Shown: positions 13,783 to 61,893 of the stretch, piece by piece
Position numbering within the stretch: the stretch's first letter is position 1
Layout of the letters: each line of letters begins with the position of its first letter
Assembly: GCA_964396685.1 (NCBI GenBank)
Contig: CAYNFS010000004.1
Span: 1-63,639 of the forward strand
Reading direction: 5' to 3'
DNA: 63,639 bases
Source: an uncultured Candidatus Saccharibacteria bacterium
GTDB taxonomy: Bacteria > Patescibacteriota > Doudnabacteria > UBA920 > 2-01-FULL-46-14
Position numbers and translations under genes: made by a program
The notes under the pieces: model-generated
Seen by the model: only the letters and a program-made list of their open reading frames with translations
The model's database searches: none
What the model was told of the DNA's origin: nothing

Positions 13783-13797
13783 GACAAATACGAAAAT

Positions 13798-14187: not shown

Positions 14188-14283
14188 CTCTCCTAGCCAA
14201 AGCATTGGAGAATCCTCAATATCTTGATTCCCGTGGGGAGCCGCGGAATATCAACGCGGAGGAGAAGAAACCCAAACAAAATA
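14156..14283. repeat. 128-bp direct repeat, copy 1 (upstream of R-M cassette 1)
   Basis: matches 16323-16450 with 4 substitutions. Confidence 0.95.
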
Positions 14284-14363
14284 ATCTTTGCTCCCATTCA
14301 TGGAAGTGCTAGAATTAAGGTACACTGAGGAATATAGTTCCCCCAAGCTTACTAAAAATATAC

Positions 14364-15104: not shown

Positions 15105-15107
15105 TAT

Positions 15108-16091: not shown

Positions 16092-16169
16092 AAACAACTT
16101 ACGACCAAAAAAATCATTATAGTCTCGCATGATCTTCCAGCACACGGCATAATAGACTATGGTTAACTA

Positions 16170-16367
16170 ATGACAATTTACCTCATTACCCACACGGAAA
16201 CCTATTACAATCGCAATCCTCGCTCTTCTCGGCTGGCTGATTGGCTGGGGGATTTTAAAGATCTACCACCCCGCCAAAAAATGAACCACCTCACAGTGAG
16301 CCGACGAAGCATCGGAGGCTTTCCAAAAAGCGTTCATTCGTCCGAAGCCCCCGACTCTCCTAGCTAA
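16170..16367 (+). pseudogene. chimeric remnant: 5' end of a histidine phosphatase gene fused to the 3' end of a membrane-protein paralog
   Basis: 16170-16214 encodes MTIYLITHTETYYNR as at 18676; from 16218 onward resembles 14100 onward. Confidence 0.85.
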
Positions 16368-16450
16368 AGCATTGGAGAATCCTCAATATCTTGATTCCCG
16401 TGGGGAGCCGCGGAATATCAATGCGGAGGAGAAGAAACCCAAACGAAATA
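16323..16450. repeat. 128-bp direct repeat, copy 2 (upstream of R-M cassette 2)
   Basis: matches 14156-14283. Confidence 0.95.
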
Positions 16451-16520
16451 GTTTGGCGGGGCGGCAATGTGGATAATCAAGATTGACAATGGGTGAACAA
16501 GCGTTTACCATAAAAGTAAT

Positions 16521-17708: not shown

Positions 17709-17713
17709 GATAA

Positions 17714-18649
17714 ATGACAAATTTAGAGTTGCTGGAATTTTGCAAAAAACACCCGGAGCCGGTTCTAGACAGGCACTATATGTTTATCGAGAAAGATAAG
17801 AACCTTAGCAAATATGTAAGTCAGACTAAGGAAATAAAAAATACCTTAATTTCCATAAAGAAAATCACTGGTAAGAGAAATGCGGGCAGAGTTTTAAATG
17901 ACCTATATGGCGATTTAGCCAGCTTACTGAACAAATATTCGATTTTTTCGGAGTTTGGCTGTTTCGTTAACGCCGCTGATTCCAGCTTAAAATATGTAAG
18001 AAGTGATCTCGAACTTTTGAAAGAAGTAACTCTTTTATATTTGTCAAAAAGAGAACTGAACGAAATCGTACCCGCAGAGTGGGTACAGGCACTGATTGAC
18101 AAAAATTCCTCTAGAAAGAAAGGTCAAGCAGGGGAAGAAAAGCTCCTTAGGGCTCTGAGCTCGTTGAAATACAAGTATACGGAAAATTATAACGAATTTA
18201 TGAGAAATAGGAGAAGTGTTTCCCGATTCAAAAGAGATTTTACTTTGAAAAAGATCGAGCAGAATTTAAAAATCTCAATCGGTAAACAAACACAAGAGAA
18301 GAAGCTTGATCTCTGTATAAAAAAAGATAAAAATATTTATTTCCTGGAAGCCAAGCATATCAGTAATAGCGGCGGCGCTCAAAACAAGCAGATGCTTGAA
18401 CTAATCGAAATTATAAGAGAGAATCCCAAATACAAGCGCTATCATTTTGTTTCTTTTTTGGACGGCGTCTATTTTAATATCCTTTGGAAACCAGAGAAAG
18501 CGAAACTGCTAGAAAAGGCTGATGAGAGATCCGTAAAGAAAACATTAAATAAAATTGAGAGCCAAACAAGGGATATTGTCCAAGCATTGAAAAATAATCC
18601 AGGCAATTATTTTATAAACACAGCCGGTTTTTCCAAGCTGTTTTCATGA
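17714..18649 (+). CDS. type II restriction endonuclease-like protein (PD-(D/E)xK)
   Basis: KKLD...LEAK...GG.QNKQ; follows a methyltransferase. Confidence 0.7.
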   Translation: MTNLELLEFCKKHPEPVLDRHYMFIEKDKNLSKYVSQTKEIKNTLISIKKITGKRNAGRVLNDLYGDLASLLNKYSIFSEFGCFVNAADSSLKYVRSDLELLKEVTLLYLSKRELNEIVPAEWVQALIDKNSSRKKGQAGEEKLLRALSSLKYKYTENYNEFMRNRRSVSRFKRDFTLKKIEQNLKISIGKQTQEKKLDLCIKKDKNIYFLEAKHISNSGGAQNKQMLELIEIIRENPKYKRYHFVSFLDGVYFNILWKPEKAKLLEKADERSVKKTLNKIESQTRDIVQALKNNPGNYFINTAGFSKLFS

Positions 18650-18675
18650 TATCTGATGAAGACAAAAATCAGGTA

Positions 18676-19230
18676 ATGACCATCTACTTAATCACCCATA
18701 CAGAAACCTATTACAATCGCCGGCGGATTTTTTGCGGGCAACGCGACTCCCGCCTCACCCCTCTAGGACATCGGCAGGCCGAAGCCATCGGCCGCAAGCT
18801 TAAAAATGAAAAAATTGATGCGGTTTTCACTTCTCCTCTTGGCCGCTGTCTTGAGACTCTAAAACATATCAAAAAGTACCATCCAGACATCAAAGTCATC
18901 AAAGACCCGAGGCTTATTGAACGCGATTATGGCAGACTCACCGGCAAAAGTAAGGTTAAATACCGCCAGCAACATCCCAAGCTTTACCAAATTTACCACC
19001 GCTCTTATGAAACTGCTCCGCCCGGCGGGGAAAGCATGATAAAAGTCTCAAAGCGGGTTTTGAGTTTTCTCAAAGACGCCCTGCGTTACCTCAAAAAAAA
19101 GAAGGCCGATGCGCTTATCATCGGCCACAACAATTCTGTCCGCCCCATCCGCCGCTACTTTGAGAAACTCTCCGTAAAACAGATGATGCAGGATGACAAC
19201 CATTTGCGGATTTTCATCTACCGCATCTAG
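18676..19230 (+). CDS. histidine phosphatase family protein
   Basis: THTET variant of RHG motif, D..LT..G..QA, SPL.R..ET, ER.YG, H.N. Confidence 0.85.
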   Translation: MTIYLITHTETYYNRRRIFCGQRDSRLTPLGHRQAEAIGRKLKNEKIDAVFTSPLGRCLETLKHIKKYHPDIKVIKDPRLIERDYGRLTGKSKVKYRQQHPKLYQIYHRSYETAPPGGESMIKVSKRVLSFLKDALRYLKKKKADALIIGHNNSVRPIRRYFEKLSVKQMMQDDNHLRIFIYRI

Positions 19231-27783: not shown

Positions 27784-27903
27784 CACGGTAATAGGGGCTT
27801 CTGGGGCTCAAAAAACTGGACAGCCTCCTGCGGACACATTGCGAAGGCAACCAGAAACAAGCTTAGTTAGATTCAAATCTGATATTCTTTAACGATGTTA
27901 CCC

Positions 27904-27960
27904 TTATAGCACGAGCTTTCAGGAAGTCACGTTCCAAAATAGTCCTTCGGCTATTTGACA
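27904..27960. repeat. intergenic block A (copy 1)
   Basis: similar to 29908-29965; ends in TATTTGACA. Confidence 0.85.
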
Positions 27961-28015: not shown

Positions 28016-28312
28016 ATGAGAACTACCCAAACCATGACTATTTCCCTCCCTCCGGGGATGGTAAAAGAATTTGAGAAAATCCGCAGAGCAGAAAATCGAA
28101 CCCGCTCCGAGCTGGTGCGGGAAGCTTTGCGCTATTATATCGAAAGACGCTACCCAATTGTGGAGCCTACCAAAGCGGAACTCAAGGCCATTCGTCGAGG
28201 ACGGGCCGAAATACAACGGGGCAATTATGTAACCCTTGAAAAACTCATAAATGACTTGGCGGCTTCAGGTCGCAAAGCGAGCGCAAAAAGCTCTCGCAAA
28301 GCTCCCCGTTAA
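28016..28312 (+). CDS. ribbon-helix-helix (CopG) antitoxin
   Basis: TMTISLP......FEKI...ENRTRSELVREALR; overlaps the toxin gene. Confidence 0.85.
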   Translation: MRTTQTMTISLPPGMVKEFEKIRRAENRTRSELVREALRYYIERRYPIVEPTKAELKAIRRGRAEIQRGNYVTLEKLINDLAASGRKASAKSSRKAPR

Positions 28313-28508
28313 AGATCGGCAAAGAATCCTCTTGGCGGTTGCCGAGATGCGCAGTAATCCTTTCTCGGGAGATATTGCTCGTCTAAAGTTCGAGCGCACC
28401 GCTTGGCGTCGCAGAGTTGGCAGCTATCGTATCTTTTTTGATGTTTACCCAGATCGCTTTATTGTTGACATTGTAGAGATCACTCGCCGCACCTCTTCAA
28501 CTTACTAA
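28251..28508 (+). CDS. RelE/ParE family toxin
   Basis: W.L....RAQK.L.KL...; WRRRVGSYRIFF. Confidence 0.88.
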   Translation: MTWRLQVAKRAQKALAKLPVKDRQRILLAVAEMRSNPFSGDIARLKFERTAWRRRVGSYRIFFDVYPDRFIVDIVEITRRTSSTY

Positions 28509-28565: not shown

Positions 28566-28659
28566 TATTTGACAATTTTGCCGAAATCTGCAATAATCGG
28601 GCGCTGCAACTTGATTTCAAACCCAAAATTCTGCGCCGAAATTTTGGGCTCACAAATTT
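28566..28659. repeat. intergenic block B (copy 1)
   Basis: similar to 29957-30049; starts TATTTGACAATTTTGCCGAAATCTGCAATAATCGGGCG. Confidence 0.9.
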
Positions 28660-29900
28660 ACAAACAATACATCGTAAAAGGGAATAAATTCGACCCTCGT
28701 GCCATTCAAATTTTCCCGCTTTCTTTCCCCTAAATAAACAATATAGGCTCTTGCCGGGTGATATTTAGAGATAAAATTCCGCATGGAGCGAGGAATTCCG
28801 GCTCCCCCGCGGGACTGGAATTTGACCTCAAGGGGAGTAATTTCCTTTCCTGTCTCAATCACGAAATCCACCTCCGCCCGATCTTTTGTGCGCCAGAAAT
28901 GCAAATCCGTCGCGGTATTGGCAATTTTTTGGAAAAGTACAAGAAATACGAAATTTTGAAAGAGAAACCCGGCTCGGCTGCCGGTAAGCTCCCGGCCAAA
29001 ATTGCCGGCAACATAATTGCAAAGTCCCAAATCATCAAAATAGTAAATTGGGGCGCGGGTCAATTCCTTGCGTACATTTCTGAAAAAAGGTGTTAATTTT
29101 TTCAAAATAAATGTTTTTTCCAAATACCAAAGATAATGCTTAACCGTTTTGACGCTAAGTCCTAAAGTCGCGGAAATTTCTGAAAGAGTCACCAGGTTTC
29201 CGATCTGGTCAGCCAGAATCTTCACTAAATGCGTGAAAGCTTCGGTTTTTTCTATCTTCAGTAAATACGCGATATCCTTCTCAAGATAACTTTGGTAAAT
29301 CTCGCTCATGATGTTCTGTTTTTCCCCGACCGAGTCAGCCGTGACCACCGCCGGATAGCCGCCAAATTGCAAGTACTCATCCAGTAGTTTTTTGGCTTTT
29401 GGCTCTTCTATCTGGAAAAAGCGGGGGAGGATGTTTTCGTAACGATAATTGGTTTTATAATTCACAAATTCCTGGAAAGTCAAAGTTGTGAGTTCAAAAA
29501 TTCTTTTGCGCCCGGCCAAGGACTCATGGATTTGTTCCTTGAGTTCCAAACTGCCCGAACCGGAAACAATGAACTTATACGGCAAATCAAGATCGTAGAG
29601 GCCTTTCAAAAAAATTCCGGCGTTTGGCACCCGTTGGATTTCGTCAATGAATACAAAGCCCTTGCTCCGGCCTATCTCTAATTCAATTTTCTGCAATAAA
29701 GTTTCTTGGGAAGCAAAAAACGGCAAATGGGACTGGATGTCCAGATTGAGAAAAAGAGTTTTTTTGCCCTCCTGCCGAAGCTGGTTTTCCAGCAATTTCA
29801 TCAAAGTAGTCTTGCCGGCCTGCCTGGGCCCGGTAATCAAGGTGATTTCTTTGCGGGAAAGATGGGACTGAAGCGGTTTAAACAAATGCCTTTTGATCAT
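28650..29900 (-). CDS. AAA+ ATPase (AAA_14 + DUF4143)
   Basis: GPRQAGKTT, FIDEIQ, SGS, GGYP, C-terminal EVDF...EVK. Confidence 0.9.
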   Translation of the reverse strand: MIKRHLFKPLQSHLSRKEITLITGPRQAGKTTLMKLLENQLRQEGKKTLFLNLDIQSHLPFFASQETLLQKIELEIGRSKGFVFIDEIQRVPNAGIFLKGLYDLDLPYKFIVSGSGSLELKEQIHESLAGRKRIFELTTLTFQEFVNYKTNYRYENILPRFFQIEEPKAKKLLDEYLQFGGYPAVVTADSVGEKQNIMSEIYQSYLEKDIAYLLKIEKTEAFTHLVKILADQIGNLVTLSEISATLGLSVKTVKHYLWYLEKTFILKKLTPFFRNVRKELTRAPIYYFDDLGLCNYVAGNFGRELTGSRAGFLFQNFVFLVLFQKIANTATDLHFWRTKDRAEVDFVIETGKEITPLEVKFQSRGGAGIPRSMRNFISKYHPARAYIVYLGERKRENLNGTRVEFIPFYDVLFVNL

Positions 29901-29907
29901 ATTGCCA

Positions 29908-30049
29908 TTATAGCACGAGTTTTCAGGGAGTCAAGTCCCAAAATGGTCCATTCGGCTATTTGACAATTTTGCCGAAATCTGCAATAATCGGGCGTTGCAA
30001 CTTGATTTCAAACTCAGATTTTTGCGCCGATTTTTCGGCTCAAAAATTT
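29908..30049. repeat. intact A+B intergenic block (copy 2)
   Basis: contiguous version of the blocks at 27904-27960 and 28566-28659. Confidence 0.9.
29960..29988 (+). promoter_or_regulatory. sigma70-like promoter
   Basis: TTGACA-N17-AATAAT upstream of the 30191 operon. Confidence 0.6.
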
Positions 30050-30190
30050 GGGCTGTGAGTATCTCGCAGTTCCAACGCTCTTTGGCAGTATCAAAGAGGA
30101 ATTTCAATTTCAACTAGGATCACTTGCTCCTCTTTTTGCATTGGTCACAAAAACCAGTGGAAGGAGTGGGTGGAAAGGAAAAGGTAGAAT

Positions 30191-31552
30191 ATGGCACATG
30201 AAATTAGCCTCATAGTTGACCCGCCGCAATTAGTAGCTGGCGGAAAATTCTGTGAGGTACGGCTGAAGGCAACTGTGGTGAAGAAGACCAAAAGCGGCGC
30301 AGGAGAAAAAACTGTCGCCGCCAAAGGCACTCTTCAATTCCGCAAAGACGACCAACCAATAATGGAGGGGCCAGTCGATGATAACGGAGTTTTCACTCAT
30401 CGCCTGGAAATCCCTCTCCAAAACGACCAGCAGTCAGTGCGCTTTGATGCAACTTTCCGGTCCCAAGCCGGCGAAGTTGCACACGCACCCTACCAACGCA
30501 TCACCATTCCACCCACCCATCGCGATCGCAGGGACAAAGATCGCAGGCAGGATTGGGAGAGAGTGAGCTACAAGCTCGAACTCAGACACTCTCTCAATCC
30601 GAACGGCGCTGACGAGTACACACTCACCGCAGACGTAACGCTCACTGCGCACGAGCGACGCGGCGAGAAAGACACTCGCGATGTCGCCGTCCCTGGCGCA
30701 ACCATCAAAATTTCCCTCAACGGCAAGGTAGCCAGCACCGGTATCACAGACGGCGCTGGAAAAACCCTTTTCCACTCGGTGCTCAGGGCCAGGGAGGTAG
30801 AGGAAACCTTCTTCATGGTCGCAACGGCCGAAATTGATGGTAAAACCGTTACCGCATCAAGCACCGAAACCGTGAAGGTACCGGCGAAAAGGAGAACGAA
30901 CCAAGAACACAGCTACCATAAGCTCTCCCTCCATGTAATGCGTCAACAGGCCGGCGAGAATCAGTATCGCTACCTGCTCAAAGCCACCTTCCTCAAAGTG
31001 GAGCGGAGAGGCGATGAGACGAAAGAGCATCCTGTTAGGGACACCCCTGTTGTCTTCACGGTCAACTCGCAGGAGCTCTCTTACGGCGACAAGTTGCCAA
31101 CAACCGATGCGACCGGCGAAGCTTTTCTGCAGACCGGAGTCTACGACTCGCTCGACCAGGAACAAGCGATGTATTTTCTGGCCAAGACGGTCGTGGTTGA
31201 CAAGCCGGTGGTATCGCAGACTTTTATTGACAAGCTGCCGGCCCTAGCAAAACCAGTGCCTGCAGTCGCTGCCAATCTCTGGCTCGTCTGCCGCGGCAAC
31301 GCAGCCGAAGTAACCCTCTTTGACAAAGACGGGAAACCCTGCGCCGCGCCGCTCACCATCATCCCGCACGTGACCAATGTAGCAATTCATGACAATTCTG
31401 GGAAAGAAATCACCGCCTGGCCCGTGAATGTTCCGGCCAGCGTTTCGGTGTTTTTCTTCTTCCACGAGGAGGCCAAGAGATTCTCCGCCACTTTCGCCAG
31501 CGGCGGAGCCTCAAAGACCGGGATTATCTACCCGGAGAAAAGGAGCAAGTAA
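30191..31552 (+). CDS. hypothetical protein with 3-4 tandem Ig-like beta domains
   Basis: ~110-aa beta-rich repeats each with a (T/V)D..G motif, charged linkers, no signal peptide; AAGG-type RBS. Confidence 0.7.
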   Translation: MAHEISLIVDPPQLVAGGKFCEVRLKATVVKKTKSGAGEKTVAAKGTLQFRKDDQPIMEGPVDDNGVFTHRLEIPLQNDQQSVRFDATFRSQAGEVAHAPYQRITIPPTHRDRRDKDRRQDWERVSYKLELRHSLNPNGADEYTLTADVTLTAHERRGEKDTRDVAVPGATIKISLNGKVASTGITDGAGKTLFHSVLRAREVEETFFMVATAEIDGKTVTASSTETVKVPAKRRTNQEHSYHKLSLHVMRQQAGENQYRYLLKATFLKVERRGDETKEHPVRDTPVVFTVNSQELSYGDKLPTTDATGEAFLQTGVYDSLDQEQAMYFLAKTVVVDKPVVSQTFIDKLPALAKPVPAVAANLWLVCRGNAAEVTLFDKDGKPCAAPLTIIPHVTNVAIHDNSGKEITAWPVNVPASVSVFFFFHEEAKRFSATFASGGASKTGIIYPEKRSK

Positions 31553-31553
31553 C

Positions 31554-34196
31554 ATGGCGAACGCACAAACCTCCTGGTTCCGGGAGATCCTTTCGGTGAT
31601 CCTGGGCCATCCCATTGGCCAGTTTTTGAGCAATGCGCTCAAGGATCTATTTCAAAAAGCCGGGGAACATGTGACCGAGAAGGAGATCAAGGTCATCATG
31701 ACCAAGATCTTCGGGCCGGGTACGGAGGATGAACGCCGGTTCACCCTGGCTATGAGTTTTCTTGATCCCAACGAACAAAAACGGATCTGGGAGATGCTCG
31801 GCCAGCTTGAATCGCACCAAAGTGATTACTTCCGGATCACTGTAATGCAAGAAAAACCGGAAGACATCGCCAAAGTACTGCGTGAAGTTTACGCAGTCAT
31901 GGACGATAAGGCCTGGCAAAACGCGATCCAAGTCATGAATTACGACTTGGAGCACATTCAGGACAAATGGACGAGAGTTCAGAACTGGATCGGCGCCAAC
32001 TGGCGCACTCACGTTTGGCCAGCCCTTCGCGCCTTTGGCTGGTGGCGGGCAATCGGCCTTGTCGCTCTGGTGTGGTTTCTTGACCGTACGACCCCATCGC
32101 AAATCGGCCAAGCGATTGCCACAACAGCCAAAGCGATCTGGACCCAAGTCACGGCTAGTGGTGGTGGCCTCGGCAAAGGACTGGGTTGGCTCGGAACTAA
32201 ATTCGGCGCAGGACTCAAAGCCACATTCTCCGGTCTCGGAAAGGGAATTTCGGCAACCGCCAAGGGAACAGCAGAAGCAAGCGGCTGGCTCGCTAGCATA
32301 GTGGCGTGGCTTGTCAGAAACATCCTGGCTGTGACACTGGGCCTTCTGGGTCTTGTCGCCGCTCTCGGTGTGCTTTTTCTGGCATCCCCCACATTCCGCC
32401 AGCAGGTATTCACGCTTGGCCCGTCGGTACTGGTGTGTGGTGTTATACTCACGGCAATAACCATTGCTTGGGTGACCCATCATCATTACCATGCGGGCTG
32501 GGTTGTCACCCTGCTCGGCATGTACTGGCTGATCCTACTCGGCACCCTGTGGCCCGGGTTCTTAGCGAATCTGGCCACGATCGGCTTACCCCTCTTCGCG
32601 CTCCTGGCGGCTGTTCTCCTAATCCTTTCCGGATGGATGACGACAGTTCGCTGGTGGCGCCGCATTGCCTACGCTTTGACGACTATCTTGCTCGGCGTCT
32701 TGCTCCTCCCGCCTGTTTACCGGTGGGTGGCGGGGACGAGCTTCGGGCAAATCAGCGGCCGGTATTTCAACGCCGTTGGCGGCCAGAAGTTCACCCAGTG
32801 GGTACGCGCCATCGTCCCTCGGGAGATTGATCGCGGTCTTACATTGGGTGAAGTCACCGAGGACGCCAGCCTGTACGTGCAGGAGGCCGGCAAGCTCAAG
32901 CCCAAGGTGCTTGTCGAAACTCTCGAGGTCAAAACGAAAGAGCCGATTATAATCCTTTGGGGAGTAAAGATCGGCGAAATTGAGAAGGTTGAAGAGAAGA
33001 CCATAGAGAAACGGCAGGTACTCAAGGCCGGGACGAAGGTCAAGGTCTGGCAGGCACGGCCGAACCTGGTGTTTGACGACGGCGAGAACGACGAGCCGGT
33101 CCTGAAGGTGAAAATCGCTGACGAAAGCGGCGAATTCATCACCAGCAAGGAAGAGCTCTATGTTGTCGCCCGCAAGGTTCGCCTCACAAGCCCGCTTCCT
33201 GCCAAGGCCGACATGCGGCCCACCCCGTGGTACCACCACCTCATCTATCTCTTGGCCATGATCGTCGGAATGTGGATGATCATGAACTTGCCGCCAAAGG
33301 AGAAGCTGGGACGGAGGATCACTTGGGTGGCAATGACGGTCGTCATGCTGCCAATGGCGGTCTATATGTTAATCAACATGATAGACGCCAAGGCAGCACC
33401 AATTCCAACCCGCACGACTACGGTCACCACGACCCGCATCGGCCAGCCAGTAAGCGGCGTCATCGGGCCGCCGGAGTATGTGGCTCTGGTGGACAAGTAT
33501 CTCGCCCAGTACCCGACCGTGCCGCGGAATCTGGCGCTGGCGATGATTCAGGTTGAATCTAGCTGGGATCCGCGCGCGGTCTCGCCGCGAGGGGCGCAGG
33601 GCCTCATGCAGTTGATGCCGGATACGGCTAGGCTGCTTGGGGTCAGCGACCCCTTCGACCCAGACCAGAACATCCGCGGAGGGATCCAGTACCTCGCGCA
33701 GCAGCTTGCTGATTTCTCCTCTACGGAGCTGGCGCTGGTAGCCTATCACTGGGGACCAGAGAACGTCCGGAAACACCCGGGCAAGACCTGGGAGCAAATT
33801 CTGGCAAGCTCGGACGAACCCAGACCTGGACCACTCACGATCGACTACGTCCGGGATGTAATTGCGTTGGCTCGCGGTCAAGCTCCCGGCCAACCCGGTG
33901 TGCAGATGGCCGTAACCCCCCCACCTCCTCCGCCACCCAAGGAGTTTGAGATATCCTTCGGGCTTGCGGAAGGTACCACCTACGAGACTGTGGTCGTAAC
34001 CTGCACCACGGACTCAAAGGTGGAAACGGCCGAAATGACAAAAAAACGGCCGTACTGGGGATTCAAAATCACCCCGGCCACGCGCTGTGTGGCGCAGGAT
34101 GAAGCCGGAAGGGAAATCAAGTTGGTTGACTCAAAAGGTCAATTACTTCCAACCGGATTTCAACCCAAACCCAACCTCGTGGCCTGGGTGCAATAA
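31554..34196 (+). CDS. polytopic membrane protein with C-terminal lytic transglycosylase (SLT) domain
   Basis: start MANAQ after AAGGAG; many TM helices; 'MIQVESS...AVSPRGAQGLMQLMP.TA...DP..NI.GG..YL...LALVAYHWG'. Confidence 0.85.
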   Translation: MANAQTSWFREILSVILGHPIGQFLSNALKDLFQKAGEHVTEKEIKVIMTKIFGPGTEDERRFTLAMSFLDPNEQKRIWEMLGQLESHQSDYFRITVMQEKPEDIAKVLREVYAVMDDKAWQNAIQVMNYDLEHIQDKWTRVQNWIGANWRTHVWPALRAFGWWRAIGLVALVWFLDRTTPSQIGQAIATTAKAIWTQVTASGGGLGKGLGWLGTKFGAGLKATFSGLGKGISATAKGTAEASGWLASIVAWLVRNILAVTLGLLGLVAALGVLFLASPTFRQQVFTLGPSVLVCGVILTAITIAWVTHHHYHAGWVVTLLGMYWLILLGTLWPGFLANLATIGLPLFALLAAVLLILSGWMTTVRWWRRIAYALTTILLGVLLLPPVYRWVAGTSFGQISGRYFNAVGGQKFTQWVRAIVPREIDRGLTLGEVTEDASLYVQEAGKLKPKVLVETLEVKTKEPIIILWGVKIGEIEKVEEKTIEKRQVLKAGTKVKVWQARPNLVFDDGENDEPVLKVKIADESGEFITSKEELYVVARKVRLTSPLPAKADMRPTPWYHHLIYLLAMIVGMWMIMNLPPKEKLGRRITWVAMTVVMLPMAVYMLINMIDAKAAPIPTRTTTVTTTRIGQPVSGVIGPPEYVALVDKYLAQYPTVPRNLALAMIQVESSWDPRAVSPRGAQGLMQLMPDTARLLGVSDPFDPDQNIRGGIQYLAQQLADFSSTELALVAYHWGPENVRKHPGKTWEQILASSDEPRPGPLTIDYVRDVIALARGQAPGQPGVQMAVTPPPPPPPKEFEISFGLAEGTTYETVVVTCTTDSKVETAEMTKKRPYWGFKITPATRCVAQDEAGREIKLVDSKGQLLPTGFQPKPNLVAWVQ

Positions 34197-34282: not shown

Positions 34283-34314
34283 AAAAGGCTCGGATTCTTC
34301 CGAGCCTTTTTTTT
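34283..34314 (+). terminator. intrinsic terminator
   Basis: AAAAGGCTCGGA-TTCT-TCCGAGCCTTTT followed by T-run. Confidence 0.8.
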
Positions 34315-34325
34315 GCAAAAAAATT

Positions 34326-34718
34326 TTATTCCTCCTCTTTGCTTAAAGAGGAGGAGGGGAGGAGTTCCTCGATTGAGTTAACAATAGCTTTATAAACACC
34401 TTCAGAATTATATAGTACATCATTATTCCAAAAACGCAAAACTTTGATGCCAAACGAGTTTAGGTACTTTGTTCTAAGGGCGTCAGATCTTTCAACTTCG
34501 TCATCACTATGATGTCCGCCATCTATTTCTATGGCAAATTTTAGCTTAGGACAATAAAAATCTAAGATAAAATTGCCGACCCCGGATTGTCTAAGGAATT
34601 TCAGATTCCCGATCTGCCTGTTTCGAACGAGATTCCAAACAATTCTTTCCGCCTTGGTTGAGTCTCTACGAAGTTGTCGCTTGAGAGGTTTCAGCTTTAA
34701 TTTATTATAGATTCTCAC
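34326..34718 (-). CDS. DUF559 (Vsr-like) endonuclease
   Basis: LRRDST.AE...W...R......KF.RQ.......DFYC......IEIDG..H...D..RT..L...G..VLRFWN. Confidence 0.9.
   Translation of the reverse strand: MRIYNKLKLKPLKRQLRRDSTKAERIVWNLVRNRQIGNLKFLRQSGVGNFILDFYCPKLKFAIEIDGGHHSDDEVERSDALRTKYLNSFGIKVLRFWNNDVLYNSEGVYKAIVNSIEELLPSSSLSKEEE
34328..34366. repeat. C/G-rich hairpin at the 3' end of DUF559
   Basis: TTCCTCCTCTTTGCTTAAAGAGGAGGAGGGGGAGGAG; encodes LLPSSSLSKEEE. Confidence 0.75.
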
Positions 34719-34820: not shown

Positions 34821-35261
34821 TCAAGCCCCAAACGAGCCGAAAATCAAAGCATTGGTAATCACCCTGACAATCACAAAAGACAGCACGACAATCACCACCC
34901 CGATAATCGCGTGGGTCAAAGTTTTTTTGGCGGCTTCGGCTTGTTCCTCATTGCCGTGAGCCGTGACATAGCGATATCCGCCGACAATCACAAACAAAAC
35001 AGCAAGAAGCCCGACAATCCAGAGGGCGATTTGGATAAGCCCAATGATGAGACTGGTGGCCGTGCTGGCCCCGGCCGGCGCGCAAGGCCCGATCACAATC
35101 CCAAGCAAAGTGATACATGCTCCAAACTGGATGTTGCGCGGCACCGGCACCGGCTCTGTGGGATTGATTCCAATTTGCGCTAAAGCATTAAAAAAAGGCA
35201 AAATCGAAAGAGAAAGCACTAGTATCCAAAAAGCAATTTTTTTAAATCTTTTTCGAAACAT
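34821..35261 (-). CDS. TrbC/VirB2-like (T4SS_pilin) pilin 7
   Basis: GGYRYVTAHGNEEQAEAAKKTLTHAIIG flanked by TM helices. Confidence 0.85.
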   Translation of the reverse strand: MFRKRFKKIAFWILVLSLSILPFFNALAQIGINPTEPVPVPRNIQFGACITLLGIVIGPCAPAGASTATSLIIGLIQIALWIVGLLAVLFVIVGGYRYVTAHGNEEQAEAAKKTLTHAIIGVVIVVLSFVIVRVITNALIFGSFGA

Positions 35262-35270
35262 ACATAAAAA

Positions 35271-35702
35271 TCAGAAAGGCGATCCAAAAATTAAGATATT
35301 GGTGATAATCCTGATCATGGTAAAAGCCAGCACGACGACGATCAAACCGACGATGGCATTTGTGAGGGTCTTCTTGGCGGCCTCGGTTGCTTCCTCGTTG
35401 CCGCGGGCGGTGAGATACCGCAGTCCTCCCCACATCAGGAAAAGCACGGCCAGGGACCCCACTACCATAAGCGCAACATCCAAAATTATGACAATCGTAT
35501 CGCCAAAAGTTCCCCTGCTCGCAATGCCCTCATCTGCAGTATCAAACAGACAAGGAACCTTTACCAGTCCTTGCCCGCCAATTCTGCAAAAATTCTGCCC
35601 AAACGCAGCAACTGGCGCAAAAACCAAAAACAAACACAAAATGCTTAATCCCAGACTTTTTAATTTTTCGCTTTTCGCTTTTCGCTTTTCGCTTTGCGTC
35701 AT
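35271..35702 (-). CDS. TrbC/VirB2-like pilin 6
   Basis: GGLRYLTARGNEEATEAAKKTLTNAIVG. Confidence 0.85.
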   Translation of the reverse strand: MTQSEKRKAKSEKLKSLGLSILCLFLVFAPVAAFGQNFCRIGGQGLVKVPCLFDTADEGIASRGTFGDTIVIILDVALMVVGSLAVLFLMWGGLRYLTARGNEEATEAAKKTLTNAIVGLIVVVLAFTMIRIITNILIFGSPF

Positions 35703-36106
35703 ATCCCCGTTCCCGGCACTCCCTTAAGAAGCACCGCCGCAATAATGGTCACAATCGCATAAGCCATTACGATAATCACCAGCCCCCAGATGGAGCTGGT
35801 GATGGTTTTTTTGGCGGCTTCGGTCGCTTCTTCATTGCCTCTTGCGATTACATATTTGTAGCCGCCCCACATCAGGAAAATCACGGCAACGCTCGCGGCC
35901 ACAATCAGCAAGATCTGAATAATGACGGTAATGAGCTTCCCCAGATCTGTTGCTTGGGTAGGCGAATTAGGATCGCCACCAAAAATTCCCTTAAGATCTT
36001 GAAAAAGCTTGCTGTCAATCCCCGCCCCATAAGTTAATATGGGAACGAGCAGGAAAACTAGCCCGCCCAAAACCAAAAAAAACCAAAATTTTCCTTTTTG
36101 TCTCAT
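35699..36106 (-). CDS. TrbC/VirB2-like pilin 5
   Basis: GGYKYVIARGNEEATEAAKKTITSSIWG. Confidence 0.85.
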   Translation of the reverse strand: MRQKGKFWFFLVLGGLVFLLVPILTYGAGIDSKLFQDLKGIFGGDPNSPTQATDLGKLITVIIQILLIVAASVAVIFLMWGGYKYVIARGNEEATEAAKKTITSSIWGLVIIVMAYAIVTIIAAVLLKGVPGTGI

Positions 36107-36127
36107 TATTAGCCTGACTGCTCTGTC

Positions 36128-36502
36128 TTAAACGTTCTGGGAGATCAAAGCGTTGGCAATGACCCGGACTATGACAAAGGCCAAGATGATGATGACGATA
36201 CCGATAATCGCGTTGGTAATAGTCTTTTTGGCCGATTCTGCAGTTTCTTCATTGCCTCCGGCCGTAATATAGCGAAACCCGCCGACAATAAGGAATATAA
36301 CAGCAACAAGGCCGGCAATAGCCAGCAGAATTTCAACAATGCGGATAATGATTTCGGTCGCGGTATTTACACTTCCTACCGGATCCGAAGGATCGCTCGG
36401 GTTGCGAAACTGCGCTCCCGCCACAAGCGGCAGTACCAGCACCGCAAGAAGCAAAAAGATCGATACAATATTGGCTGTTTTAATGGGATTTATGTTTCTC
36501 AT
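36128..36502 (-). CDS. TrbC/VirB2-like pilin 4
   Basis: GGFRYITAGGNEETAESAKKTITNAIIG. Confidence 0.88.
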   Translation of the reverse strand: MRNINPIKTANIVSIFLLLAVLVLPLVAGAQFRNPSDPSDPVGSVNTATEIIIRIVEILLAIAGLVAVIFLIVGGFRYITAGGNEETAESAKKTITNAIIGIVIIILAFVIVRVIANALISQNV

Positions 36503-36685
36503 TTGTAATTATGCGATCCGAATGATACTAATTTTCATCCGAATGTTCCGAATATATTAGGATAATTCAGATGTCATTCGTATATTAGAATCGCTGTTTT
36601 TTAAGGAATAACTCTCGACCTCGAGTTATTTTTAATTATCAACAATACTTGCATATTATAGCATATTCCAAAAAATAATGCCAGC

Positions 36686-37306
36686 TTACGGCCCCGTGCG
36701 GACACAATCACCCACGGTAAGCCCGCCAGGGTTCTGACAAGCGCAGCCCCCCGTCCGAGTCCGCCTGCATAAAAGCCCGGTATTGCATTCCGAATCGCCG
36801 GTACAAGTGGAGCCTGCGACTCCGCCGCCACCACCTCCTCCCGAAGGATTGCTCGAACCCCCACTCCCTCCTCCTGTGGCGGGGGCGGGGGCAGTTGTCA
36901 AAATGGTATTCACAATCGCCACGATGGCAAAAGCCAAAACAATCACCACAATGCCGACTACCGCGTAAGTGATGGTTTTTTTGGCCTTTTCCGTGGCCTC
37001 TTCATTGCCTCTTGAGGCCACATACTGAAAGCCTCCGACAATCAAAAAGAGCACCGCAATCCCGCCGGCGGCGTATAAAAGCCACGTAATGAAATGCCTA
37101 AGAAGCGCTCCAAAATCCGTGAAGTTAACCAATTGGCCGGGGGCGGGGTTTCCTAATACACATTTGTTTGGCGAAATCTCACATTGACCAGCAGGGCAGC
37201 TCCCTTGGATGCACGGCCTTTCCTCTTGAGCATTTACTAGCAAAGGAGGACTAAACAAGATCAAGAAACCTAAAACCAAAAGTATTTTATAATTTTGTTT
37301 CTTCAT
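36686..37306 (-). CDS. TrbC/VirB2-like pilin 3 with Cys-rich N- and C-terminal extensions
   Basis: start MKKQNY; GGFQYVASRGNEEATEKAKKTITYAVVG; Gly/Ser linker, then a 6-Cys domain. Confidence 0.85.
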   Translation of the reverse strand: MKKQNYKILLVLGFLILFSPPLLVNAQEERPCIQGSCPAGQCEISPNKCVLGNPAPGQLVNFTDFGALLRHFITWLLYAAGGIAVLFLIVGGFQYVASRGNEEATEKAKKTITYAVVGIVVIVLAFAIVAIVNTILTTAPAPATGGGSGGSSNPSGGGGGGGVAGSTCTGDSECNTGLLCRRTRTGGCACQNPGGLTVGDCVRTGP

Positions 37307-37308
37307 TT

Positions 37309-37902
37309 TTAGGACGGCGGAGGAGAAAGTAAGATAGTGCGAATCAAATTGATTATAGTAAAAGCCAGAATTGTTACAATGAATCCGGCAATCGCCCATT
37401 TCAGCCCCTTTTTGGCGCTTTCCACCGCTTCTTCATTCCCGGCTGATGTAATGTACTTATAACCATAATATATTATCATCAAAATTGCGGCAAATCCCAA
37501 TATCCCCAGAAAATTCCGCATGACAAAATACATCACACTTACAAAACTGCCGGGTTCAGTCGGGCCGGTAATCGGATTTTGAATTTTATCAGCGCCCGGA
37601 GGGCTGGGGGTGAAGCCCAAAAACTTGGCTGTGGCCGCAATTAAAGTAAAAGACAAAAGCGAAACTATAAATCCGCCCACGGCCCAAGTCAGACTCTTCC
37701 TGGCGCTTTCTATGGCCTCTTCATTCGTGGCCAAAATCATTTTGACTCCCGAAAAAACCGTAAATGCAATGGCGATAGCCGCAATGATCGCCGCAAATCC
37801 CTGAAAAGCTCTGACCACGAGCTCCCCCGGCGTGCTCACCCCCAGCCAAGCTAAGGGATTAAATAATTCCACTGTTTGCGCTAAAAAAATAAATTTAATC
37901 AT
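37309..37902 (-). CDS. double-domain TrbC/VirB2-like pilin 2
   Basis: two motifs: ATNEEAIESARKSLTWAVGG and TSAGNEEAVESAKKGLKWAIAG. Confidence 0.85.
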   Translation of the reverse strand: MIKFIFLAQTVELFNPLAWLGVSTPGELVVRAFQGFAAIIAAIAIAFTVFSGVKMILATNEEAIESARKSLTWAVGGFIVSLLSFTLIAATAKFLGFTPSPPGADKIQNPITGPTEPGSFVSVMYFVMRNFLGILGFAAILMIIYYGYKYITSAGNEEAVESAKKGLKWAIAGFIVTILAFTIINLIRTILLSPPPS

Positions 37903-38351
37903 TGATTTATCGGATTTGAAGGATTAAAGGGGCAATCGGTTGCGCCCGGATTGTAAATGCATTGAATATCGTACCACTTACGTTCCATTTTCTCGCCTTT
38001 GCCAAAAATACCGTTGACCAGCAAATTTACGAAAACAAAAGCCAGAACGATTATGCCGAAGCCGACAATGGCGTTGGAGAGGCCCTTCCTGGCTTTTTCG
38101 ATTTTTTCGGCATTGCCGACTGAAGTAATCAGGTTAAAACCGGCCAGCAGAATGTAGTACATCGCCACAATCGCCGCGACCGTGATAAGATAATTGATGA
38201 CGCGGGTGATAAGAATAATCAAGTGCTTGAGTTGGCACGGTTCAGGGTATTCGGAAGAGCCGCACGGGACTAGGCTGAAAGCGTGGACTGAGAGAGGAGC
38301 AAATGTAACCGCCAAAGTTATGAGCGATAATATTATAATTTTTTTCTGCAC
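37899..38351 (-). CDS. TrbC/VirB2-like pilin 1
   Basis: LVPCG...PC...; AGFNLITSVGNAEKIEKARKGLSNAIVG. Confidence 0.85.
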   Translation of the reverse strand: MQKKIIILSLITLAVTFAPLSVHAFSLVPCGSSEYPEPCQLKHLIILITRVINYLITVAAIVAMYYILLAGFNLITSVGNAEKIEKARKGLSNAIVGFGIIVLAFVFVNLLVNGIFGKGEKMERKWYDIQCIYNPGATDCPFNPSNPINQ

Positions 38352-38460: not shown

Positions 38461-39753
38461 TTAGAAATTTCTTAATAAGAGATTCATCTTCTGGCTCGCG
38501 GCGGAGACGGCTTCTTCGGGGGCAATGTTTCGCAGGATAACGTCGTCAATCATCTGCACAAAAATCGCGTCCACCGCGTTGCTGTCCGGCTTATAAACGC
38601 TTTTGGCCGAGAGCGCCGCTTCGGCAAACACGCCGATGTCGGGATCAGAAAGCTGTTGTTCTATGATGTCAATTCTCGGGGAAGCCTGCTTCTGCGTTTC
38701 GTAATACTTGGGAAGGGTTTCTTTGCTGCTGATGAATTTCAAAAACTGCCAGGCCGCCTCCTGATTTAAGCTTTGTTTGGAGACCCCCTCTGCCCAATAA
38801 TTGGCAAAATTAACCCGGTTGCCTAAAGGATCAATTTGCGGCGCCGGGGCAATCCCGTAATTTAAGAAAGGCGCTTTGTCGGCAAGGGTGGGGCGCAGAT
38901 AAGAATAGGAAAAAATCATGGCGACCTGGCCGGCGGTAAAGGCTTCTATGGAGTTGTTGGAACGGGCGTTCCAGGTGTAGGTGACCTTGGCGGGATTGGC
39001 GAATTGGGTATAAAACTCAAGAGCGGTGGAAGCGGGATTGAAAGGGACACCCTGCTCGTCCCGCAGGGTTTGGCCCAAAAGCGAGACTCGGGAGTCGGGA
39101 GAATAAAAAGTCGTCCCGTTCTGCAGCATCAAAAGTTCCAAAATATCCGGCGCGCGATTGACATTGTTAGAAGTGCCCATGGCCACGCTGCTTCTTTGGA
39201 AATTTCCAAGATTGTCTTGTCTGGTGATTTTGCGCGTTTGCGAGACCAGCTCCTCCCAAGCGGCGGGCGGGCGGGGGATGCCGCTTGAGGCCAAAATATC
39301 GCGATTGTAATAGAGGGCCAAAACGTCCACTGCCAAAGGCACGGCATAGACCAGCTCGTCCGCCACCAAATCAGAGCTTGCCACCTGTATAAAATTATCC
39401 TTGAATTCCCGCAAGCTCATAACATTGGCCGGGGCCGGAGCTAATTTGCTTTTGTGTTTGGGAAGCCAATCGTTGTGAATTGAGAAAATGTCAGGGCCGC
39501 TGCCAGAGGCCAAAGCGTCAAGAAGCTCATCCTCGTAAGTCTCGATATTTTTCTTGACGTAAGTGATGCGGATATTCGGAAACTTTTTTTGAAATTCCGC
39601 AATCAAAGGCTGGACAACTGCCAGCTCGTCAAACGGCTTCCACCATTTAAGCTCGATCTGGGGACCGCGCTGGCGCCCGCCGCCCAAGATATTGCAGGAC
39701 TGGGCCGTGAAGATTATCGCAAGGAGAAGAATTAGGAATCTTTTTTGTTTCAT
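38461..39753 (-). CDS. ABC transporter sugar-binding-like lipoprotein
   Basis: lipobox AQSC; GPDIFSIHNDW, VPLAVDVLALYYNRD, F..G.VAM. Confidence 0.85.
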   Translation of the reverse strand: MKQKRFLILLLAIIFTAQSCNILGGGRQRGPQIELKWWKPFDELAVVQPLIAEFQKKFPNIRITYVKKNIETYEDELLDALASGSGPDIFSIHNDWLPKHKSKLAPAPANVMSLREFKDNFIQVASSDLVADELVYAVPLAVDVLALYYNRDILASSGIPRPPAAWEELVSQTRKITRQDNLGNFQRSSVAMGTSNNVNRAPDILELLMLQNGTTFYSPDSRVSLLGQTLRDEQGVPFNPASTALEFYTQFANPAKVTYTWNARSNNSIEAFTAGQVAMIFSYSYLRPTLADKAPFLNYGIAPAPQIDPLGNRVNFANYWAEGVSKQSLNQEAAWQFLKFISSKETLPKYYETQKQASPRIDIIEQQLSDPDIGVFAEAALSAKSVYKPDSNAVDAIFVQMIDDVILRNIAPEEAVSAASQKMNLLLRNF

Positions 39754-39765
39754 TCTTGATACGTG

Positions 39766-40620
39766 CTAGGCAACGAAAATGTCTTTGACCTGATCTTTAT
39801 ATTCACTTCGGGAAAGAGCAAATGCCCGGACTGCCCGAAGATAAGAAACCGGGTCACCTGTAGTATACCATTCGCCTTCTTTTATTTTAACATAGAAGGC
39901 TCTTGAGCCCTTTTTGAGAAGATATTCAATCCCATCGGCAATCCAGAGCTCGCTACCCTTGCCGAGGGGAATATTTTCCAGGGCTTGAAAAATTTCCGAA
40001 GTCAAAATATAGCGCCCGAAAACCGCCAGCCTTGAAGGGGTGGATTCCGGATCAGGTTTCTCAATGATGGAGTGAATTTCATTGCTGTTTTTGTTTATCG
40101 TTTCCACAATGCCGTATTTGCTTACTTCAGCCTCGGCCACTTCTTTGACACCGACATACATCGCCGGCGCCTTTTCATATGCCTCAATCATCGTTTTGGC
40201 AAAAGGGGTTCTGGACAAAATCAGATCGTCGCTGAAGGCGTATATAAAAGGCTCGTCTCCAATCAAATGCCGGACATTGAGCACCGGCGTGCCGTTGCCG
40301 TAAGGCCCTTTTTGTCGAACATATATAAAATTGGCCAGCTCGGCAATTTTGCGAATCTGGGAAAGAGCCTGTTCTTTTTTGTTCTCTTTAAGCCAATCTT
40401 CAAGCTCGGGATGGTAATCAAAGTGGTCCTCCACTGCTCGCTTGTTTTGCCCGGTAACAAAAATAATGTCGGTGATGCCCGAAGCGACTAACTCTTCGAC
40501 CACATACTGCACCACGGGCTTGTCAACGATAGGCAGCATCTCTTTCGGCAAGGCTTTGGTCACAGGCAGAAACCTCGTGCCAAAACCCGCTACGGGAACA
40601 ACGGCCTTGGTTATTTTCAT
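39766..40620 (-). CDS. galU: UTP-glucose-1-phosphate uridylyltransferase
   Basis: KAVVPVAGFGTRFLPVTKALPKEMLPIVDKP. Confidence 0.93.
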   Translation of the reverse strand: MKITKAVVPVAGFGTRFLPVTKALPKEMLPIVDKPVVQYVVEELVASGITDIIFVTGQNKRAVEDHFDYHPELEDWLKENKKEQALSQIRKIAELANFIYVRQKGPYGNGTPVLNVRHLIGDEPFIYAFSDDLILSRTPFAKTMIEAYEKAPAMYVGVKEVAEAEVSKYGIVETINKNSNEIHSIIEKPDPESTPSRLAVFGRYILTSEIFQALENIPLGKGSELWIADGIEYLLKKGSRAFYVKIKEGEWYTTGDPVSYLRAVRAFALSRSEYKDQVKDIFVA

Positions 40621-40647
40621 AACAACTCAATTATACCACATTTGTCC

Positions 40648-42156
40648 CTAGAGCTCGGTTTTCGGCCGAAACATCAGCGCTTCGGCGATGTGATTCTGAC
40701 GAATCTGCTCGGAATCCGCCAAATCCGCGATGGTGCGGGCGAGCTTTAAGACCCTATGATATGCTCTGGCAGATAAATGCTGGGTGGCAACCGCGTTTCG
40801 CAAAAGGGTAAGCCCCGCTTCTTCGGGACGGCAATACTGCTTGATGTCGGCGATTCCCATTTCCGAATTGGTTAGGCCTGCGCGGGCGAGCTGCAGCTGG
40901 CGGGCTTTGGAAACTCTTGCTCTCACAGCCGCCGAATCTTCCTGCTCGCGAACTTCTTCAATTTTTTCAAATGACAGCCGGGGCACTTCCACATGCAAAT
41001 CAATCCTGTCCAAAAGGGGACCGGAAACTTTCTTTTGATAGCGCAAAAGCTGGGTCGGGGAGCAAACGCAAACTTTTTCAGGATCGGAAGCATAGCCGCA
41101 AGGACAGGGGTTTTGCGCCGCCACCAGCATAAACTTTGCAGGAAAAGCGACACTTCTGCTGGCTCGCGCGACATTAATAATCCCATCCTCCAGAGGCTGG
41201 CGCAGAGCCTCCAGGACATCCCGATGAAACTCCGGAAATTCGTCCAGAAACAAAACTCCGCGGTGCGCAAGCGTTATCTCGCCGGGCTTGGGATCAGAAC
41301 CCCCTCCCACGAGCGCGATGCTGGAAGCCGTATGGTGGGGAGAGCGAAACGGCCGTTCTTGGACAAGCCCGAGCTTGGAAGGAAGCAGGCCGGAAACACT
41401 GTAAATCTTTGTGGCCTCCAAGGACTCTTCGTAATTAAGTTCCGGCATAATTGTGGCAAGAGCGCGGGCCAGCAGAGTTTTACCCGAGCCGGGAGGCCCG
41501 CTCATCAGGATATTATGCCCTCCGCTTGCCGCAATTTCCAAAGCGCGCTTGGCCAGCTCCTGCCCGCGGATTAGCCTTAGGTCCCACGGCGAATCCGTAA
41601 GTTTGATTTGAGCGAATCCTTGCGGTCTTTCAAAATAAACGATCGGCGCAAACCCTGCCAGCATGCGCAAAAGCTGCTGCAAGTCACGAACCGCCACAAT
41701 TTTTACGCCTTCGATAAGAGACGCTTCCAGAGCATTTTCCTCGGGGACAAAAATGGTTTTGAAACCCCGATTTTTAGCCGCTTCCGCGATTACCAGAATC
41801 CCGGGTACCGGCCGCAAAGCTCCATCCAAGGCCAACTCCCCCACGAATAATTTCTGCTGCGGCTCAAAATCAAGCTGTTTGCTGTTGAGCAAAATGGAAA
41901 CGGCGATCGGTAAATCATAATGCGTCCCGATTTTTGGCAGGTCCGCGGGCGCTAAATTTACCGCCACCCGTGACTTGGGAAAAATGGTTCCGGCGTGTTT
42001 GACGGCAGATTTGACCCTCTCTCTTGACTCTCTGATGGCCGCGTCCGGAAGTCCCACAATAATAGTAGCCGGAAGACCGGAAGAAATATCGGTTTCTACC
42101 TCGACCAATTCGGCCTCAAGCCCGATCACTGCGGCAGAATAAATTTTTTGAAGCAT
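40648..42156 (-). CDS. comM: YifB/ComM Mg-chelatase-like AAA+ helicase
   Basis: VGLPDAAIRESRERV; GPPGSGKT; PGEITLAHRGVLFLDEF; SARAYHR. Confidence 0.95.
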   Translation of the reverse strand: MLQKIYSAAVIGLEAELVEVETDISSGLPATIIVGLPDAAIRESRERVKSAVKHAGTIFPKSRVAVNLAPADLPKIGTHYDLPIAVSILLNSKQLDFEPQQKLFVGELALDGALRPVPGILVIAEAAKNRGFKTIFVPEENALEASLIEGVKIVAVRDLQQLLRMLAGFAPIVYFERPQGFAQIKLTDSPWDLRLIRGQELAKRALEIAASGGHNILMSGPPGSGKTLLARALATIMPELNYEESLEATKIYSVSGLLPSKLGLVQERPFRSPHHTASSIALVGGGSDPKPGEITLAHRGVLFLDEFPEFHRDVLEALRQPLEDGIINVARASRSVAFPAKFMLVAAQNPCPCGYASDPEKVCVCSPTQLLRYQKKVSGPLLDRIDLHVEVPRLSFEKIEEVREQEDSAAVRARVSKARQLQLARAGLTNSEMGIADIKQYCRPEEAGLTLLRNAVATQHLSARAYHRVLKLARTIADLADSEQIRQNHIAEALMFRPKTEL

Positions 42157-61573: not shown

Positions 61574-61647
<74 letters not shown>

Positions 61648-61653
61648 TTTTAT

Positions 61654-61725: not shown

Positions 61726-61728
61726 AAA

Positions 61729-61865: not shown

Positions 61866-61893
61866 ATTTCAAAATGATTCATACCATGCTTCC

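Follow-up and report, generated by a model that had tools for sequence, protein, structure and literature searches.

A polytopic membrane protein with a lytic transglycosylase domain beside a VirB2-type pilin array in a Patescibacteria genome

Described counterparts of the array-adjacent protein

Lytic transglycosylases (LTs) of the VirB1 type (A. tumefaciens VirB1, plasmid R1 P19, TrbN) combine a family-1 SLT fold and a catalytic glutamate with a gene position beside VirB2-like pilus genes, and are presumed to open peptidoglycan locally for the assembly of a pilus or channel. Here we describe the gene at positions 31554-34196 (+) of a 63,639-nt chromosomal stretch (contig CAYNFS010000004.1; hereafter the window) from an uncultured member of the Patescibacteria. 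Its product of 880 amino acids (aa) carries an SLT domain, and the gene lies next to an array of VirB2-like pilin genes. VirB1 proteins are small, Sec-exported, soluble periplasmic enzymes encoded within the virB operon. In the window protein, by contrast, the SLT domain is the predicted extracytoplasmic part of a polytopic protein, encoded by its own unit convergent with the pilin genes and with no virB4 gene within the 63 kb.

The type IV secretion systems (T4SSs) of Patescibacteria are related to monoderm conjugation systems, namely the MPF-FATA class, to which VirB2-like pilins have been added (PMC12102498). The wall hydrolases of Gram-positive-type T4SSs (PrgK of pCF10, TraG of pIP501, TcpG, CwlT) are membrane-tethered, as the window protein appears to be, but through just one anchor or lipobox at the N-terminus, and as a rule they pair an SLT or lysozyme domain with a second hydrolase domain (CHAP, NlpC/P60 or LytM). 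By contrast, the window protein has 7-9 transmembrane (TM) segments, one hydrolase domain and extra beta domains; in this protein and eight relatives, Pfam detected only SLT-type (lysozyme-like) families and neither CHAP, NlpC/P60 nor LytM. Extended VirB6 proteins resemble it in having at least five TM helices, large central and C-terminal hydrophilic domains and a T4SS-related neighbourhood. However, none of nine family members matched VirB6 or TrbL in Pfam at E≤0.1, and a profile of the TM and beta region searched against PDB chains gave a best E of 0.7, to unrelated proteins, without similarity to VirB6, TrbL or PrgH. We know of no VirB6 protein that carries an SLT domain.

Two further groups share the catalytic domain. 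Phage tape-measure and tail lytic proteins (such as gp41, PDB 9b45) are likewise large multidomain carriers of a muralytic domain, and their SLT domains are 35-58% identical to that of the window protein; they differ in being long helical proteins with 0-1 TM segments in a tail gene context, and no sequence is shared outside the SLT domain. The housekeeping and flagellar LTs (MltF, MltC, Slt70; Borrelia BB0259) have the same catalytic domain and motifs, and BB0259 offers the parallel of a membrane-anchored LT devoted to one envelope-spanning machine. The accessory domains of these LTs differ from those described here, and the bit scores of the window protein fall far short of the NCBIfam equivalog cut-offs (65 where 234 is required for BB0259, 52 where 354 is required for MltF).

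Against this background the window protein is an architectural variant of a specialised LT attached to a secretion or pilus system, and its linkage to stand-alone VirB2 arrays is previously undescribed. We suggest that it is a membrane-integral, VirB1-like wall-opening module serving a Patescibacteria VirB2 pilus or T4SS structure, with a probability of about 0.5. This reading is reasonable because the SLT domain is intact and is predicted to lie outside the membrane, because the protein is not a tape-measure protein, and because the gene is linked to pilin genes in 7/7 informative loci. Much of bacterial diversity belongs to the Patescibacteria, and the finding bears on the way in which these monoderm cells build a Gram-negative-type pilus across their wall.

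Catalytic domain, architecture and relatives

The only Pfam family found in the window protein was SLT (PF01464), at residues 651-742 (E 4e-24; 84.9 bits against a cut-off of 21.3), and the PHROG, NCBIfam and PDB sequence matches were confined to residues about 640-775. The motifs QVE668S669, G683-L-M-Q686 and A730-Y-H-W-G734 are present. Residues E668, S669, G683, Q686, A730, Y731 and G734 are invariant in an alignment of nine homologues, and the ES and GLMQ motifs are identical when aligned with E. coli Slt70. When AlphaFold2 (AF2) was run on the nine-sequence alignment, the domain was modelled as a lysozyme-like all-alpha fold with a predicted local distance difference test score (pLDDT) of 84-95. 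Foldseek matched this model with probability 1.0 to MltF, Slt70 and MltE, and also to MltC; the best 50 matches listed were exclusively SLT-type LTs. Judged from these motifs the enzyme part looks intact, from which we infer muralytic activity.

The predicted parts of the protein are listed below; relatives are designated P (proteins) and L (loci and their genes).

31554-32003 (+), residues 1-150: helical 'B' domain, predicted to be cytoplasmic; a separate upstream gene in relatives
32154-32282 (+), residues 201-243: Gly/Lys-rich amphipathic stretch; similar stretches, judged by eye, in P0012, L091_347 and L090_142
32322-32720 (+), residues 257-389: core of five TM segments, from hydropathy and AF2 helices
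32841-33188 (+), residues about 430-545: predicted extracytoplasmic beta domain with the motif W-x-A-R-P; pLDDT 60-82; aligns with P0004 and P0007
33240-33374 (+), residues 563-607: TM hairpin with the K/R-rich loop PPKEKLGRR, which would bring the chain back outside; similar hairpin in P0006
33384-33464 (+), residues 611-637: Thr/Pro-rich flexible tether; pLDDT below 50
33465-33881 (+), residues 638-776: SLT domain with family-specific flanks; codon of E668 at 33555-33557
33882-33941 (+), residues 777-796: Pro-rich linker, seen in the sequence, including PPPPPPP
33942-34193 (+), residues 797-880: small C-terminal beta domain, at the position of a weak VHL-beta match in P0012 and P0011

Hydropathy gave seven strong TM segments (residues 257-275, 286-304, 314-332, 340-358, 371-389, 563-581 and 589-607) and two weaker hydrophobic stretches (160-177 and 244-256). 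Of the 43 residues of the amphipathic stretch, 13 are Gly and 5 are Lys, and its helical moment is moderate; the tether includes TRTTTVTTTR (residues 618-627), and the proline run lies at residues 789-795. AF2 predicted strands in both the central beta domain and the C-terminal domain. Overall pLDDT was 44 with the single sequence; on the nine-sequence alignment the SLT domain was resolved and the beta domains partly so, whereas the TM region reached about 45-58.

In most family members a short K/R-rich loop precedes the final TM segment ahead of the soluble part. This was judged by eye for the window protein, P0002, P0003, P0006, P0007, P0012 and P0013, and the loop was weaker in P0005. In the window protein the loops are TTVRWWRR, ahead of the segment at 371-389, and PPKEKLGRR within the hairpin. 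The additional TM segments of the window protein and of P0006 are paired, so that the beta domain and the SLT domain stay on one side. Given that no N-terminal signal peptide is present, the simplest model suggested by this charge bias has the N-terminus inside and the beta, SLT and C-terminal domains outside; the topology call used only the local charge signal before the last TM segment. A first-pass annotation of the window, made from the sequence alone, had described an intact SLT domain with its catalytic glutamate in QVESS and with GLMQ, and had expected it outside the membrane. Both points hold, the second by the local positive-inside signals. All domains in that description were borne out, but its 'roughly ten' TM helices become 7-9 by hydropathy.

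An exhaustive search found 42,270 SLT proteins among 1.84 billion representatives. Among the best 150 of these 42,270 matches, similarity to the window protein extends beyond the SLT domain in at least about ten clusters (P0002-P0007 and P0011-P0013, of 468-672 aa). These relatives have in common the polytopic N-terminal part, the W-x-A-R-P beta domain, an SLT domain between family-specific flanks (PPEYVALVDKYL and PGKSWAQIA...ET..YV..VIALA) and the small C-terminal beta domain. Overall identity among the family proteins is 30-41%, and Pfam gave an SLT match in 9/9 members. A search with a profile of the SLT domain alone returned generic short SLT proteins and one fragment of the family.

Parts of the window protein are encoded by separate genes in relatives. 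At locus L091, a 347-aa gene (L091_347) corresponds to window residues 10-230 (blastp E 8e-16) and continues into TM helices, and the next gene, P0004, corresponds to residues 431-823 (E 5e-57). L090 has three genes: L090_195 with the helical domain, L090_142 matching residues 215-281 (E 7e-4), that is, the Gly-rich and TM part, and P0003 matching residues 326-859 (E 2e-61). At L005 a 195-aa gene (L005_195; window residues 8-129, blastp E 6e-10) precedes P0012. For the proteins upstream in L004/L088 and L002/L003, comparison with the 'B' domain gave a hint only (hhalign E 0.06-0.16). These alignments show that two or three genes which are adjacent in relatives are fused in the window protein. 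That its parts are fused here and neighbouring but separate there argues, on the Rosetta-stone principle, that they act together, and the split and fused forms nominate partner proteins for interaction. An architecture that had at first not been recognised is thus partly explained as L091_347 plus P0004, L090_195 plus L090_142 plus P0003, or L005_195 plus P0012.

Downstream, the gene converges on the following array.

34821-38351 (-): seven VirB2/TrbC-like T4SS pilin genes, all matching PF18895 and several also TrbC/VirB2

The family gene converges on a PF18895 array in the window and in L002, L004, L005, L087/L088, L089 and L090, i.e. in 7/7 loci whose contigs extend far enough past the gene; another three contigs stop short of that region. 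In L090 the array comes after an inserted toxin-antitoxin (TA) pair, and the truncated last gene ends with the pilin signature. Several of the loci derive from one run set, so their independence may be incomplete. The upstream flank varies between genomes: FtsH in L005 and L087, AbiEii in L002, and a TA pair with an AAA_14 ATPase in the window. The pilin array named in the first-pass annotation is thus present next door, although its pilins are of the T4SS VirB2 type and not type IV pilins. The linkage to pilins that it had proposed to look for extends to all seven loci, whereas the proposed linkage to VirB4 or VirB6 was not found in the 63.6-kb window.

Two observations concern genes beside or within these arrays. 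A family that we call 'gene A' lies upstream of the module and is kept in six relatives; its products consist of an N-terminal cold-shock-like OB domain (PF00313 in L004, E 5e-12) and an Ig-like part, with neither a signal peptide nor a TM segment. A nucleic-acid-binding domain within a pilus-linked operon is puzzling. One array gene, at L089 3156-3917, encodes a 253-aa protein whose C-terminal part, after the T4SS_pilin domain, matches the He_PIG Ig-like domain; by its domain matches this is a pilin with an added surface module. The copies of 'gene A' are located as follows.

L004 1310-1900: 'gene A'
L088 134-751: 'gene A'
L091 2-523: 'gene A'
L005 2789-3514: 'gene A'
L090 184-912: 'gene A'
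L089 3-527: 'gene A'

Possible functions

Opening the wall locally for a pilus is the job of VirB1-type enzymes elsewhere, and a corresponding mechanism can be outlined for the window protein. The N-terminal helical domain, a separate protein in relatives, would stay in the cytoplasm, while the five-TM core and the TM hairpin would anchor the protein in the membrane. Outside the membrane would be the beta domain, the SLT domain on its flexible tether of ~25-30 residues and the small C-terminal beta domain. At a site fixed by the membrane part, the SLT domain would cut the MurNAc-GlcNAc bond of the cell's own peptidoglycan, and the resulting gap would let a VirB2-type pilus or T4SS structure assemble. 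That the tether is short speaks for an enzyme working on its own cell's wall. We infer both this action in cis and a functional coupling to the pilus. The wall-piercing half of the device envisaged in the first-pass annotation is therefore reasonable, with an intact SLT domain predicted outside and pilin linkage at every informative locus; nothing shows the host contact that it had also named. In the published survey, VirB1 homologues are mostly absent near virB4, where other glycosidases may fill their role, most VirB2-bearing genomes lack VirB1, and VirB6 is scarce or absent in some array-rich Patescibacteria classes (PMC12102498). At least in one group of groundwater lineages, the array-adjacent LT module is thus a concrete candidate, open to testing, for the step that opens the wall, and perhaps for a platform as well.

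Several points weigh against the proposed wall-opening role. The topology depends on crude hydropathy and a charge count, and whole-protein K/R sums are ambiguous for several members. No VirB1-specific model matched: the NCBIfam matches were to flagellar LT, MltF, Slt, MltC and similar models, the best being the flagellar LT and MltF, far below their cut-offs, and included no VirB1 or TrbN model. A Pfam scan of the window's open reading frames (ORFs) of at least 150 aa, of the smaller genes around the locus and of the fetched loci found no VirB4, VirB6 or VirD4 in the 63.6-kb window or in those loci. The gene and the array are convergent and hence not co-transcribed, adjacency among related lineages may partly be inherited synteny, and we found no RNA-seq run containing the locus. 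In addition, the family of at least about ten clusters (among the best 150 matches) is small compared with the 441 pilin arrays described in 383 assemblies (PMC12102498), so that it cannot be a general requirement for arrays.

Convergence on the pilins as a separate transcription unit would also fit a housekeeping LT that remodels the wall during growth and division of a small cell, with array adjacency as inherited gene order. At the profile level the SLT domain is nearest to the general enzymes MltF, Slt70 and MltC and to the flagellar LT, and housekeeping genes lie close by (FtsH, SMC and RNase III in relatives; RecA, FtsK and RodZ in the window). However, the adjacency is kept in 7/7 loci despite only 30-41% identity and several rearrangements of the opposite flank; the family is rarer among the best 150 matches than would be expected of a core wall enzyme; and the elaborate cytoplasmic and polytopic part, with its partner genes, suggests a dedicated complex. 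We consider a housekeeping role unlikely, though far from negligible. A host-directed device, in which the exposed SLT and C-terminal beta domains bind and cut host peptidoglycan where episymbiont and host touch, for attachment, feeding or T4SS delivery, appears still less probable. Patescibacteria LTs have been proposed to compromise host envelopes (PMC11665869), the pilin array and T4SS are essential for epibiotic growth of S. epibionticum (PMC10633639), and the C-terminal domain, at which P0012 and P0011 show their VHL-beta matches, could be a binding module. Two TM anchors, linkers of ~25-30 aa and the lack of a cleavage or secretion signal make it doubtful, however, that the enzyme reaches past its own wall, and nothing in the sequence points to a host.

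The first-pass annotation had itself named ordinary prophage tape-measure proteins as the homologues that would speak against a wall-piercing device. Among PDB sequences the SLT domain does indeed match a tape-measure protein best (9b45 gp41, E 3e-12), and its PHROG matches are lytic tail proteins and endolysins, covering residues 640-771 and including a single match to a tape-measure family at E 0.095. A search with the C-terminal flank of the domain matched 77 IMG/VR contigs; the 68 enclosing frames examined there, most of 630-1270 aa and some truncated where the contig stops, have at their C-terminus an SLT domain 35-58% identical to that of the window protein. The two genes of the unit are also the GC-richest in the window and have selfish genes on either side. 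The phage proteins, however, match residues about 640-775 only: for the remaining 630 aa, tblastn at E≤1 yielded nothing from 50,697 phage genomes (nor, for these first 630 residues, from 72,556 plasmids), the IMG/VR proteins have 0-1 TM segments and lack the beta and C-terminal domains, and the family-specific N-flank motif was not found in IMG/VR. The window holds no phage structural genes, and no phage structural, packaging or integrase genes lie near any of the loci, which are syntenic between genomes and set in a housekeeping context. With no phage match outside the SLT domain and with chromosomal synteny, we reject this origin; that the protein is a tail tape-measure or ejection protein, or a prophage remnant, is extremely improbable.

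A bolder variant of the wall-opening role takes in the whole three-part module, comprising the beta-rich partner encoded upstream, the helical 'B' domain and the polytopic TM core with its beta, SLT and C-terminal domains. This module might be the missing membrane platform of the stand-alone VirB2 pilus, uniting a VirB6-like subunit for pilin handling and anchoring with a wall-opener, and encoded together with the array but away from virB4. We regard this as a speculative proposal with a small chance of being correct. A VirB6-like function of the TM core is attractive but unsupported, and no profile similarity was found. If true, the module would be an unrecognised T4SS component, shuffled by fusion and fission into one, two or three genes, and would serve Patescibacteria lineages in which VirB6 and VirB1 escape homology detection.

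Transcription unit, base composition and neighbouring genes

The SLT gene is the second of two genes, one base apart (30191-31552 and 31554-34196), with the following signals around it.

29960-29988 (+): promoter-like site of the sigma-70 type (TTGACA, 17 nt, TG-AATAAT) with 11/12 consensus matches; putative function
30191-31552 (+): upstream partner gene, 453 aa; beta-rich, with neither signal peptide nor TM segment
31540-31545 (+): Shine-Dalgarno sequence AAGGAG, 8 nt before the ATG at 31554; the stop codon of the upstream gene is at 31550-31552
34283-34316 (+): intrinsic terminator with a 12-bp stem, a UUCU loop and a U-run; z = -4.9 for the 3' region

The ORF table and translation give the 880-aa product from the ATG at 31554, within a long open frame that spans 31428-34196 (+). 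This start is credible because AAGGAG lies 8 nt upstream, because it follows the stop of the partner gene by 1 nt, and because the N-terminus aligns with that of L005_195 (residue 8 pairs with residue 8). The sequence signals are consistent with a two-gene operon, and the promoter and terminator that had been predicted for it were both located, the promoter-like site with the reservation given above. An Rfam scan of the window found tRNAs only.

The 453-aa partner appears, by eye, to consist of three putative Ig-like repeat modules and a C-terminal part; BLAST gave no confirmation of internal repeats. The protein had no match in Pfam, PHROG, NCBIfam or PDB, and no detectable relationship (E 0.2) to the 'gene A' family, though both occupy the same position upstream.

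The two genes have a GC content of 57.3% and 55.1%, against a mean of 46.6% (standard deviation 5.1), and a third-position GC content of 68% and 63%, against a mean of 51% (standard deviation 7); by both measures they rank first and second of 48 window genes. The claim that the operon is visibly GC-richer than its flanks is thus correct, but homologous modules have 53-61% GC everywhere, in contigs of 49-58%. The nearest relatives of the window protein, P0002 and P0003, come from the GC-richest contigs. The immediate flanks appear especially AT-rich because small selfish genes sit there (a DUF559 gene of 38% GC and an AAA_14/DUF4143 ATPase gene of 43% GC). High GC may be typical of the module, or the module may have been replaced from a GC-richer relative; both fit, and the composition is at most a hint of replacement.

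Contigs of four groundwater metagenome runs match the operon without any difference over the parts covered, and in two of these runs the operon is complete. This groundwater source, together with the PF18895 arrays and the literature, points to a CPR/Patescibacteria origin. Contig ends left loose at 29957 were considered as a deletion variant lacking the ATPase gene; this was rejected, as they reflect a 38-nt repeat that is shared within the unitig graph.

The intergenic DNA upstream of the operon contains nested repeats. An intact element, at 29900-30050, includes the promoter-like site at 29960-29988. A second copy of it is in two pieces: the first part is found again at 27898-27960 (87.5% identity), the second at 28566-28659 (90%), and an RHH/RelE-like TA pair (28016-28508) splits this copy. 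The two copies flank the AAA_14/DUF4143 ATPase gene at 28650-29900 (-). Selfish cassettes thus seem to have inserted one after another into a single promoter region.

A second slot lies between the SLT gene and the array or within the array; the small selfish gene found in it differs from genome to genome (DUF559 endonuclease, GIY-YIG, DUF5615/DUF433 TA pair, PDDEXK_3), and the slot appears to be an insertion hot spot.

Window 34326-34718: slot
L088 3233-3553: slot
L090 3440-4040: slot
L002 8634-9032: slot

Elsewhere the window carries ordinary chromosomal genes (YchF, S6, EF-P, RtcB, P-type ATPase, ComM, RecA, RodZ, FtsK, GlnA, Amt, tRNAs). The order pilin array, solute-binding protein, NTP-transferase (GalU-like) and ComM/Mg-chelatase-like ATPase is common to the window (38461-42156) and L088 (7281-11137), and the window continues with RecA, RodZ and FtsK beyond the ComM-like ATPase. 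Positions 12000-19000 have a GC content of 34-41% and carry three restriction-modification genes (N6_N4 methylase, Eco57I-like methylase, DpnII-like endonuclease); this low-GC region is likely an island. At the end of the window (61574-63605), six tRNA genes adjoin a large serine recombinase gene, 62274-63605 (-), in what is possibly an integration site. The 924-aa protein encoded at 11008-13782 has a right-handed beta-helix, an alpha/beta hydrolase domain of the LCAT/lipase type and, at its C-terminus, a FIMAH domain; by this domain content it may be a surface lipase or phospholipase.

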